DNA from: Escherichia coli
Lineage (GTDB): Bacteria > Pseudomonadota > Gammaproteobacteria > Enterobacterales > Enterobacteriaceae
Direction: 5' to 3' (one strand)
DNA: 64,000 nt
Assembly (NCBI RefSeq): GCF_030013595.1
Contig: NZ_CP122768.1
Shown here: positions 12,093 to 12,359 of the stretch, one piece after another
Numbering within the stretch: the stretch's first letter is position 1
How the letters are laid out: each line of letters opens with the position of its first letter
The notes under the pieces: model-generated
The model's database searches: none
Told to the model about the DNA's origin: nothing
What the model saw: the letters and a program-made list of their open reading frames with translations, nothing else
Program-made: the position numbers and the translations under genes

Positions 12093-12096
<4 letters not shown>

Positions 12097-12359
12097 AAGA
12101 GTTTTTATTTTTATTTCACTCCACGGTCGGCGTCATACAAACCCGTAAGGCGTTGCAGGCAGCGGGCATGACTTTTCGCGTCAGCGATATTCCCCGTGAT
12201 TTACGCGGCGGCTGCGGGTTATGCATTTGGCTGACCTGTCTGCCCGGCGAGGAAATACAATGGGTGATCCCTGGGCAGACCGAAGCGATATATTGCCAGC
12301 AGGGCAGCGACTGGCAGTGTGTGGTGCATTACGATTCAGAAGCGTCAACCAGGCAATAG
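12093..12359 (+). CDS. Hypothetical small protein, translationally coupled to yjiL
   Basis: 88-aa ORF whose ATG overlaps the yjiL stop (ATGA); Cys-containing; function unknown. Confidence 0.4.

Follow-up and report, generated by a model that had tools for sequence, protein, structure and literature searches.

The ytiA gene of Escherichia coli is a conserved third cistron of the yjiM-yjiL operon and may encode a sulfur/selenium carrier

The stretch of DNA analysed here, referred to as the window, consists of 64,000 nucleotides (nt) of an Escherichia coli contig (NZ_CP122768.1, assembly GCF_030013595.1), and this report concerns a small open reading frame (ORF) within it that starts on the stop codon of yjiL. 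Judged from gene order and spacing, this ORF, the E. coli gene ytiA, is the conserved third cistron of a yjiM-yjiL-ytiA operon, in which yjiM and yjiL encode a double-cubane cluster reductase and its ATP-dependent partner. The YtiA protein belongs to the DUF3343 family and carries one invariant cysteine, while distant relatives are encoded beside genes for sulfur and selenium trafficking. We lean slightly towards the joint statement that ytiA is a real third cistron, that it is coupled to YjiL and that its product would be a chalcogen-carrier accessory of YjiL/YjiM.

Gene order and translational coupling

One genome per species was scanned with an alignment of YjiM, which gave 80 loci (10 gammaproteobacterial and 70 Firmicutes-type), and these loci were then searched with the DUF3343 profile, YjiL and YjiM. 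The order yjiM-yjiL-DUF3343 was found in all ten gammaproteobacterial species sampled (E. albertii, E. coli, Superficieibacter, Citrobacter, a metagenome-assembled genome labelled Proteobacteria bacterium, Cedecea, Hafnia, Morganella and two Aeromonas). The same order was also present in two metagenomic lineages, L003 and L007, which were reached via distant homologues of YtiA. Within E. coli, ytiA adjoined yjiL in every record among the matches listed.

At the junction, the ATG of the 88-amino acid (aa) ORF overlaps the TGA of yjiL as ATGA, exactly as the first-pass annotation of this DNA had described it. Across 14 orthologous loci, the window included, a 4-nt overlap reading ATGA or GTGA (RTGA) was found at ten, a 1-nt overlap (TGATG or TAATG) at two, an 11-nt overlap at one (Hafnia) and an 18-nt spacer at one (L007). 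The two genes are therefore co-linear and either overlap or lie no more than 18 nt apart at all loci, and the variety of these junctions indicates that coupling is kept even when the start codon changes. It had been proposed from the letters of the window that the ORF may be a third member of the yjiM-yjiL unit rather than noise. This proposal is borne out, as the ORF is conserved in yjiML loci together with its overlap, and gene order and tight coupling are kept from Escherichia to Aeromonas and in both metagenomic lineages.

Only a weak Shine-Dalgarno-like sequence (GAGTGAGA) lies upstream of the E. coli ytiA start. Together with the ATGA overlap, this means that ribosomes ending translation of yjiL are likely to re-initiate on ytiA. 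Termination-reinitiation is the most likely mechanism at this start, and would tie the output of YtiA to that of YjiL. Promoter and terminator scans gave no signal above shuffled background. We infer with good confidence that YtiA works with the YjiL/YjiM reductase, with which it would interact physically.

Identity and conservation of ytiA

It is virtually certain, from conservation and annotation, that the ORF is a real protein-coding gene, and it corresponds to ytiA, which is already annotated in E. coli. A RefSeq coding sequence (CDS) with the same coordinates as the ORF, WP_000657671.1 ('DUF3343 domain-containing protein'), is present in E. coli strain 2012C-4221; ytiA of this strain is 100% identical to the window gene over 267 nt, and the whole yjiL-ytiA-espX region is 99.9% identical between the two. 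Other E. coli are 90-99% identical to the window gene over the first 211 nt, and a ytiA match was detected in 5385 of 5426 complete E. coli genomes, where RefSeq names the product either 'DUF3343 domain-containing protein' or 'putative Se/S carrier protein'. Its location directly 3' of yjiL, the overlap with the yjiL stop codon and the high identity to the annotated gene place the ORF in the ytiA orthologue group, and homologues of YtiA were found across Enterobacteriaceae.

A Pfam search, which the first-pass annotation had named as a check, returned PF11823 (Se_S_carrier, formerly DUF3343) with 48.4 bits and an E-value of 6.4e-13, against a gathering cut-off of 25. The match aligns YtiA residues 4-59 with positions 2-57 of the 69-position profile, and, as is usual for this family (~65-100 aa), YtiA is a small stand-alone protein of 88 aa with one highly conserved cysteine. 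No NCBIfam model matched YtiA. The gene is a clear PF11823 member that was already known, and not a new gene. Compared with the annotated E. coli proteins (WP_000657671.1 and WP_000657675.1) and with PF11823, the product of the window gene is the same in size (~80-90 aa), in its invariant cysteine within a PR-x5-CG loop and in the place of its gene after yjiL, whereas it differs in representing a less common allele, of which the last ~20 residues have diverged from the K-12 type (Table 1).

The ratio of non-synonymous to synonymous substitution rates (dN/dS) was estimated for pairs in which dS was not saturated. Against the window allele, ytiA gave 0.20 and 0.17 for two E. coli and 0.07 for E. 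albertii, while more distant pairs with estimable dS gave 0.11-0.20; the values in the same comparisons were 0.03-0.07 for yjiM and 0.05-0.15 for yjiL. With ratios of 0.07-0.20, ytiA is therefore under purifying selection. The small size of the ORF, the weak Shine-Dalgarno-like sequence in E. coli and a 3' end that varies between strains could be explained if the reading frame at the yjiL end had arisen by chance or had no function. However, a Pfam match above the gathering score, conservation that spans genera and orders at dN/dS values far below 1, and a confident structure model all contradict a chance ORF, which the conservation data refute and to which we give a negligible probability.

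In the literature, no experimental study of YtiA or of any DUF3343 protein was found, and no paper was found that names ytiA of E. coli alongside yjiL or yjiM. Among the papers listed for the name ytiA, nearly all deal with a Bacillus L31 paralogue, which is unrelated to the E. coli gene. The selenium/sulfur (Se/S) carrier name of PF11823 is a prediction from gene neighbourhood.

Table 1. Coordinates, within the window, of ytiA, its parts and the adjoining genes
Feature	Position	Strand	Remarks
yjiM	10168..11319	+	383-aa protein of the double-cubane [8Fe-9S] cluster reductase family; coordinates identical to those of the RefSeq CDS
yjiL	11329..12096	+	ATP-dependent activase/reductase partner, 255 aa, GTG start; RefSeq CDS agrees
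yjiL/ytiA start/stop overlap (ATGA)	12093..12096	+	Read from the sequence; ATG 12093-12095, TGA 12094-12096
ytiA ORF	12093..12359	+	88 aa, ATG start; DUF3343/PF11823 'putative Se/S carrier'; 88-aa allele
ytiA codons 32-43	12186..12221	+	DIPRDLRGGCGL; conserved loop between model strands 2 and 3
TGC codon of Cys41	12213..12215	+	Single invariant cysteine of the family
Diverged 3' end of the window ytiA allele	12303..12359	+	...GSDWQCVVHYDSEASTRQ here, ...DGVWRCIAHYGVSPR in the K-12 type (85 aa)
Pentapeptide-repeat protein gene	12669-14639	+	656 aa; annotated as type III secretion system effector EspX6 in related strains

The partner genes

Both partners of ytiA were recognised by family models. 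YjiM scored 530.8 bits against NCBIfam NF040772 (double-cubane-cluster-containing anaerobic reductase; cut-off 350) and matched the Pfam HGD-D family with an E-value of 7e-122. Seven cysteines are present in the family order (C40, C59, C78, C108, C273, C302/304 and C335), at spacings slightly shorter than those of the published motif. YjiL scored 360 bits against TIGR00241 (acyl-CoA dehydratase activase; cut-off 125) and matched Pfam BcrAD_BadFG with an E-value of 2e-75.

A review describes YjiM/YjiL as a system of two components for which no substrate is known, and as class II homologues of the Carboxydothermus system (PMC7317905). The latter, DCCP/DCCP-R of Carboxydothermus hydrogenoformans, pairs a double-cubane [8Fe-9S] protein with an ATP-dependent reductase, to which YjiM and YjiL are the E. 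coli homologues. DCCP/DCCP-R was published as two components, whereas YtiA, encoded in the same E. coli operon, would be an undescribed third.

The three proteins differ in how well they are conserved. Between Escherichia and lineages as far as Aeromonas and other gammaproteobacteria (window compared with L003, L007 and L014-L023), YjiM keeps an unusually high 74-89% aa identity, and it is still 52-66% identical to Firmicutes homologues, while its operon partners are far less conserved (60-83% for YjiL and 38-70% for YtiA). In MAFFT alignments of E. coli with L003 and L007, YjiM was 82% and 74% identical, respectively, and YtiA 35% and 38%.

The conserved cysteine and the predicted fold

Conservation within YtiA is concentrated in the first ~45 residues. 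Among 24 Enterobacteriaceae sequences, 20 residues between positions 5 and 43 are invariant, and these include D32, I33, P34, R35, L37, R38, G40, C41, G42 and L43. When 30 sequences down to ~18-40% identity were compared, F8, P34 and C41 were the sole invariant residues, with L21, G42 and Y67 nearly so. In the AlphaFold2 model (mean predicted local distance difference test score 88, predicted template modelling (TM) score 0.79), the topology is strand-helix-strand-strand-helix-strand-strand, and residues 33-42, which belong to the DIPRxLxxxCG segment, form a loop between strands 28-32 and 43-49 that has C41 at its end.

E. coli YtiA contains five cysteines in 88 residues, C41 plus C44, C49, C68 and C76, of which the first three are invariant or nearly so in Enterobacteriaceae. 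This could suggest a small iron-sulfur or metal-binding electron carrier, which would feed YjiL via a C41-x2-C44-x4-C49 site. However, C44 and C49 have been lost in the orthologues of Hafnia, Aeromonas, Morganella and L007, which stay coupled to yjiL, and this loss is therefore evidence against an iron-sulfur site as a feature of the family. Both cysteines are also absent from most distant DUF3343 relatives, leaving only C41 invariant, and YtiA shows no similarity to ferredoxin-type cluster motifs. A metal-binding role is thus very improbable, and YtiA was rejected as a ferredoxin-type iron-sulfur carrier, for which at least 3-4 conserved ligand cysteines are required. A single invariant cysteine would fit a carrier thiol better than a metal-cluster site.

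The fold of YtiA is predicted to be a single, generic ferredoxin-like beta-alpha sandwich. No solved relative was found in the PDB by sequence, whether with YtiA alone or with the family profile, and Foldseek matches of the model were weak and generically ferredoxin-like (E-values of at least 0.02 and TM scores of ~0.45-0.5, to PII/GlnK). TusA was not seen among the best fold matches. Membership of the TusA/SirA family (PF01206) was examined by profile, CPxP motif and TusA fold, none of which was found in YtiA.

The nearest, though weak, structural neighbours of the model are small regulatory domains of the PII/GlnK, CutA and ACT/RAM types, and the conserved loop of YtiA lies between strands 2 and 3. 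The T-loop of PII is located between strands 2 and 3 of PII structures. YtiA could therefore be imagined as a PII-like regulatory or adaptor subunit on YjiL or YjiM, gating the ATPase or electron transfer or docking an upstream electron donor, with Cys41 as a redox switch or contact residue and with no sulfur or selenium chemistry. The tight translational coupling, which suggests stoichiometric production with YjiL, would suit such a subunit. PII, CutA and the C-terminal domain of UreE do have the overall predicted topology and the position of the functional loop in common with YtiA, but they score weakly as structural matches, are unrelated to it in sequence, and no nucleotide- or metal-binding motifs are evident. 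A PII-like role also leaves unexplained why DUF3343 relatives are found beside TusA, YedF, YedE, desulfurases, YqeC and selD, and we consider it unlikely.

Sulfur and selenium genes beside distant DUF3343 relatives

Eleven distant DUF3343 representatives were examined on their contigs, two of which were too short to interpret. Among the nine informative contexts, seven had sulfur or selenium trafficking genes directly beside the DUF3343 gene, and the other two were of the yjiM-yjiL-ytiA type. The neighbour was TusA in P0152 and P0185, a TusA-DsrE protein of YedF type in P0154, a YedE-type Sulf_transp protein in P0150 and P0159 (the latter with a LysR regulator and a class-V aminotransferase also nearby) and YqeC in P0187. 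In P0172, a 184-aa TusA-domain protein is followed by a class-V aminotransferase, the end of which overlaps the DUF3343 start. Like YtiA, the TusA/YedF (SirA-like) relay proteins are small with one essential cysteine, and YtiA is proposed to act in their manner, through a persulfide or perselenide on a cysteine. Their genes often directly adjoin DUF3343 genes and genes similar to cysteine desulfurase or selenocysteine (Sec) lyase.

DUF3343 was proposed to be a Se/S chaperone with a conserved cysteine by Lin et al. 2015 (PMC5322559), whose Slackia STRING table gives an activase and an HGD-D subunit as DUF3343 partners. In a 2022 preprint, duf3343 was among the five genes most often overlapping selD. 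On the reductase side, another preprint reports that genomes with SelD encode 955 of 970 double-cubane proteins, and it raises selenium substrates or a selenium-bridged double-cubane cluster as possibilities (10.1101/2022.07.06.499078).

Three metagenomic polypeptides (P0125, P0143 and P0217) have a C-terminal BcrAD_BadFG activase part followed by a DUF3343 segment; both domains were seen in Pfam for P0125, and the DUF3343 part of the other two was seen by profile search only. These apparent fusions were not used as evidence, because they are short, probably N-terminally truncated fragments and a single-base error at the ATGA overlap would create such a fusion.

Firmicutes-type YjiM loci

In the 70 Firmicutes-type loci, in which the reductase is 52-66% identical to E. 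coli YjiM, neighbours were counted within 5 kb. An activase was present at 48 loci, DUF3343 at 10, YedF at 9, a SclA-like/TIGR01977 desulfurase at 9, a selenium-associated LysR at 6 and SelD at 4. With the activase excluded, at least one of the other five sulfur/selenium markers was found at 16 of the 70. The families of representative neighbours were confirmed in NCBIfam (YedF, TIGR03527; desulfurase, TIGR01977; LysR_Sec_metab, NF040786; SelD, TIGR00476). By a rough estimate, DUF3343 would be expected within 5 kb by chance at less than 1% of loci, compared with the 10 of 70 observed.

The arrangement of the genes is not constant among these loci. The order reductase-DUF3343-activase was found in L046, L087 and L089, with a longer reductase paralogue (424-453 aa) that was identified as NF040772 at 519 bits in L087 and seen only through phmmer matches to YjiM in L046 and L089. 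DUF3343 precedes the reductase in L082, L083 and L088, and L056 has the order DUF3343-desulfurase-YedF-activase-reductase. As the association between DUF3343 and the reductase survives such shuffling of gene order, it is good evidence of a functional link.

The first-pass annotation had based its proposal on the generalisation that small coupled proteins often accompany HgdC-like activases, and this part was not upheld. DUF3343 directly adjoins only a handful of the activases at the 48 Firmicutes-type loci that have one near the YjiM homologue, and, DUF3343 apart, no small coupled ORF was seen to recur after the activases of the Firmicutes-type YjiM loci.

Several other neighbours were observed in this set. 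A homologue of the MtaA/CmuA family of methyltransferases (methylcobamide:coenzyme M type) lies beside genes for a YjiM-like reductase, YedF and DUF3343 in several Clostridia/Lachnospiraceae loci (L082, 6804-7922; L083, 6791-7909; L086, 3162-4250; and L061), which may point to corrinoid chemistry there, or to methylated compounds of sulfur or selenium. In two Listeria species (L068 and L076), the activase is coupled by a 4-nt overlap to a protein of ~163 aa (MIIVPFCVLNQNAVIH...CPELIHLG...) that is not DUF3343 and looks like another cysteine-containing accessory. At L034 and L053, which also have YedF and SelD, a protein of 193-199 aa is encoded ~65-72 nt after the activase. Its N-terminus (MKINLILLA.GNSNRF...), judged by eye, looks like that of a MobA/YgfJ-type nucleotidyltransferase and, if so, this protein would be another selenium-trait neighbour of the reductase.

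Proposed role of YtiA

We tentatively propose that YtiA is a cysteine-based sulfur/selenium carrier, which would give chalcogen to the double-cubane cluster or receive chalcogen from it. YjiL would act as an ATP-driven electron pump, and YjiM as a double-cubane [8Fe-9S], low-potential reductase. Cys41 of YtiA would bind a sulfur or selenium species, such as a persulfide, perselenide or related adduct, and YtiA could either present this species to the reductase or take it from the reductase. In this way YtiA would link the reductase to sulfur/selenium mobilisation.

Several observations weigh against such a carrier. DUF3343 is lacking within 5 kb at 60 of the 70 Firmicutes-type loci, and the reductase therefore does not generally need DUF3343 nearby. 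At the 10 gammaproteobacterial loci, no sulfur or selenium gene was detected in the 5 kb around the operon. YtiA evolves much faster than YjiM, and the C-terminal half of the protein is poorly conserved. Finally, a read-through scan of 98 loci and the window gave no new Sec-containing DUF3343 homologue, a sample that is far too small to exclude one.

A more specific form of the carrier proposal, which we regard as rather doubtful, is that YtiA carries the physiological substrate of the double-cubane reductase or installs the chalcogen bridge in its cluster. For the substrate carrier, YjiL with ATP would drive low-potential electrons into the [8Fe-9S] cluster of YjiM, which would then reduce the sulfur or selenium species held on Cys41 of YtiA, for example elemental selenium, Se(0), or perselenide to selenide for SelD.

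The same co-localisation evidence could also be explained if YtiA were a non-catalytic maturation factor for the cofactor of YjiM, delivering the bridging sulfide (or selenide) that joins two [4Fe-4S] cubanes into [8Fe-9S], or acting as a chaperone of apo-YjiM. Members of the DUF3343 family adjoin cysteine desulfurase-type enzymes, which are sulfur donors for clusters, and a fast-evolving small protein with one essential cysteine would suit a transient donor. A selenium-bridged double-cubane cluster is moreover a formal possibility (10.1101/2022.07.06.499078). However, a third protein does not appear in the review on the double-cubane protein of Carboxydothermus and its reductase (PMC7317905), and the 60 YjiM-like loci that have no DUF3343 nearby argue against a maturation factor as well. 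Most of the sampled DUF3343 genes sit with TusA, YedE or YedF and without a double-cubane gene, therefore cluster maturation is not the general role of the family. We consider maturation of YjiM an unlikely function for YtiA, and the carrier is retained as our working proposal.

The variable 3' end of ytiA and the adjoining gene

Megablast homology of the window to most E. coli ends at ~12303, inside ytiA. The diverged part comprises the last ~19 codons, in which a C..W.C..HY pattern is kept, and the window-type allele was found in 635-639 of the 5426 E. coli genomes. All seven listed records with this allele also carry the adjacent pentapeptide-repeat/espX6-type gene. As the diverged allele accompanies the espX6-type gene in every listed record, this points to an island with its recombination boundary within the 3' end of ytiA.

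The espX6-type gene is located between ytiA and yjiK and is present in ~635 of the 5426 E. coli genomes. Guanine-plus-cytosine content falls from ~53% to ~31% right after the ytiA stop codon (12360-14800). Compared with the otherwise nearly identical strain 2012C-4221, in which the protein has 704 aa, the C-terminal tandem repeat of EKQA.DST units is shorter by 144 bp (48 aa) in the window copy.

Implications

To identify ytiA is in itself routine annotation, and should the chalcogen proposal fail, ytiA would be no more than a conserved gene without a known function. The value of the gene lies in being a pointer to the function of double-cubane reductases such as YjiM. That DUF3343, double-cubane reductases and selenium/sulfur genes are all three linked has been under-appreciated. 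The coupling of DUF3343 to the reductase in Enterobacterales and Aeromonas, together with the co-occurrence of YedF, desulfurase, LysR and SelD in Firmicutes, leads to the hypothesis of a three-part, ATP-driven system for chalcogen reduction or transfer. If YtiA were the substrate carrier of the reductase or the installer of its chalcogen bridge, the orphan double-cubane enzymes would gain their first physiological role, and the near-exclusive occurrence of these enzymes in SelD-containing genomes would be explained.
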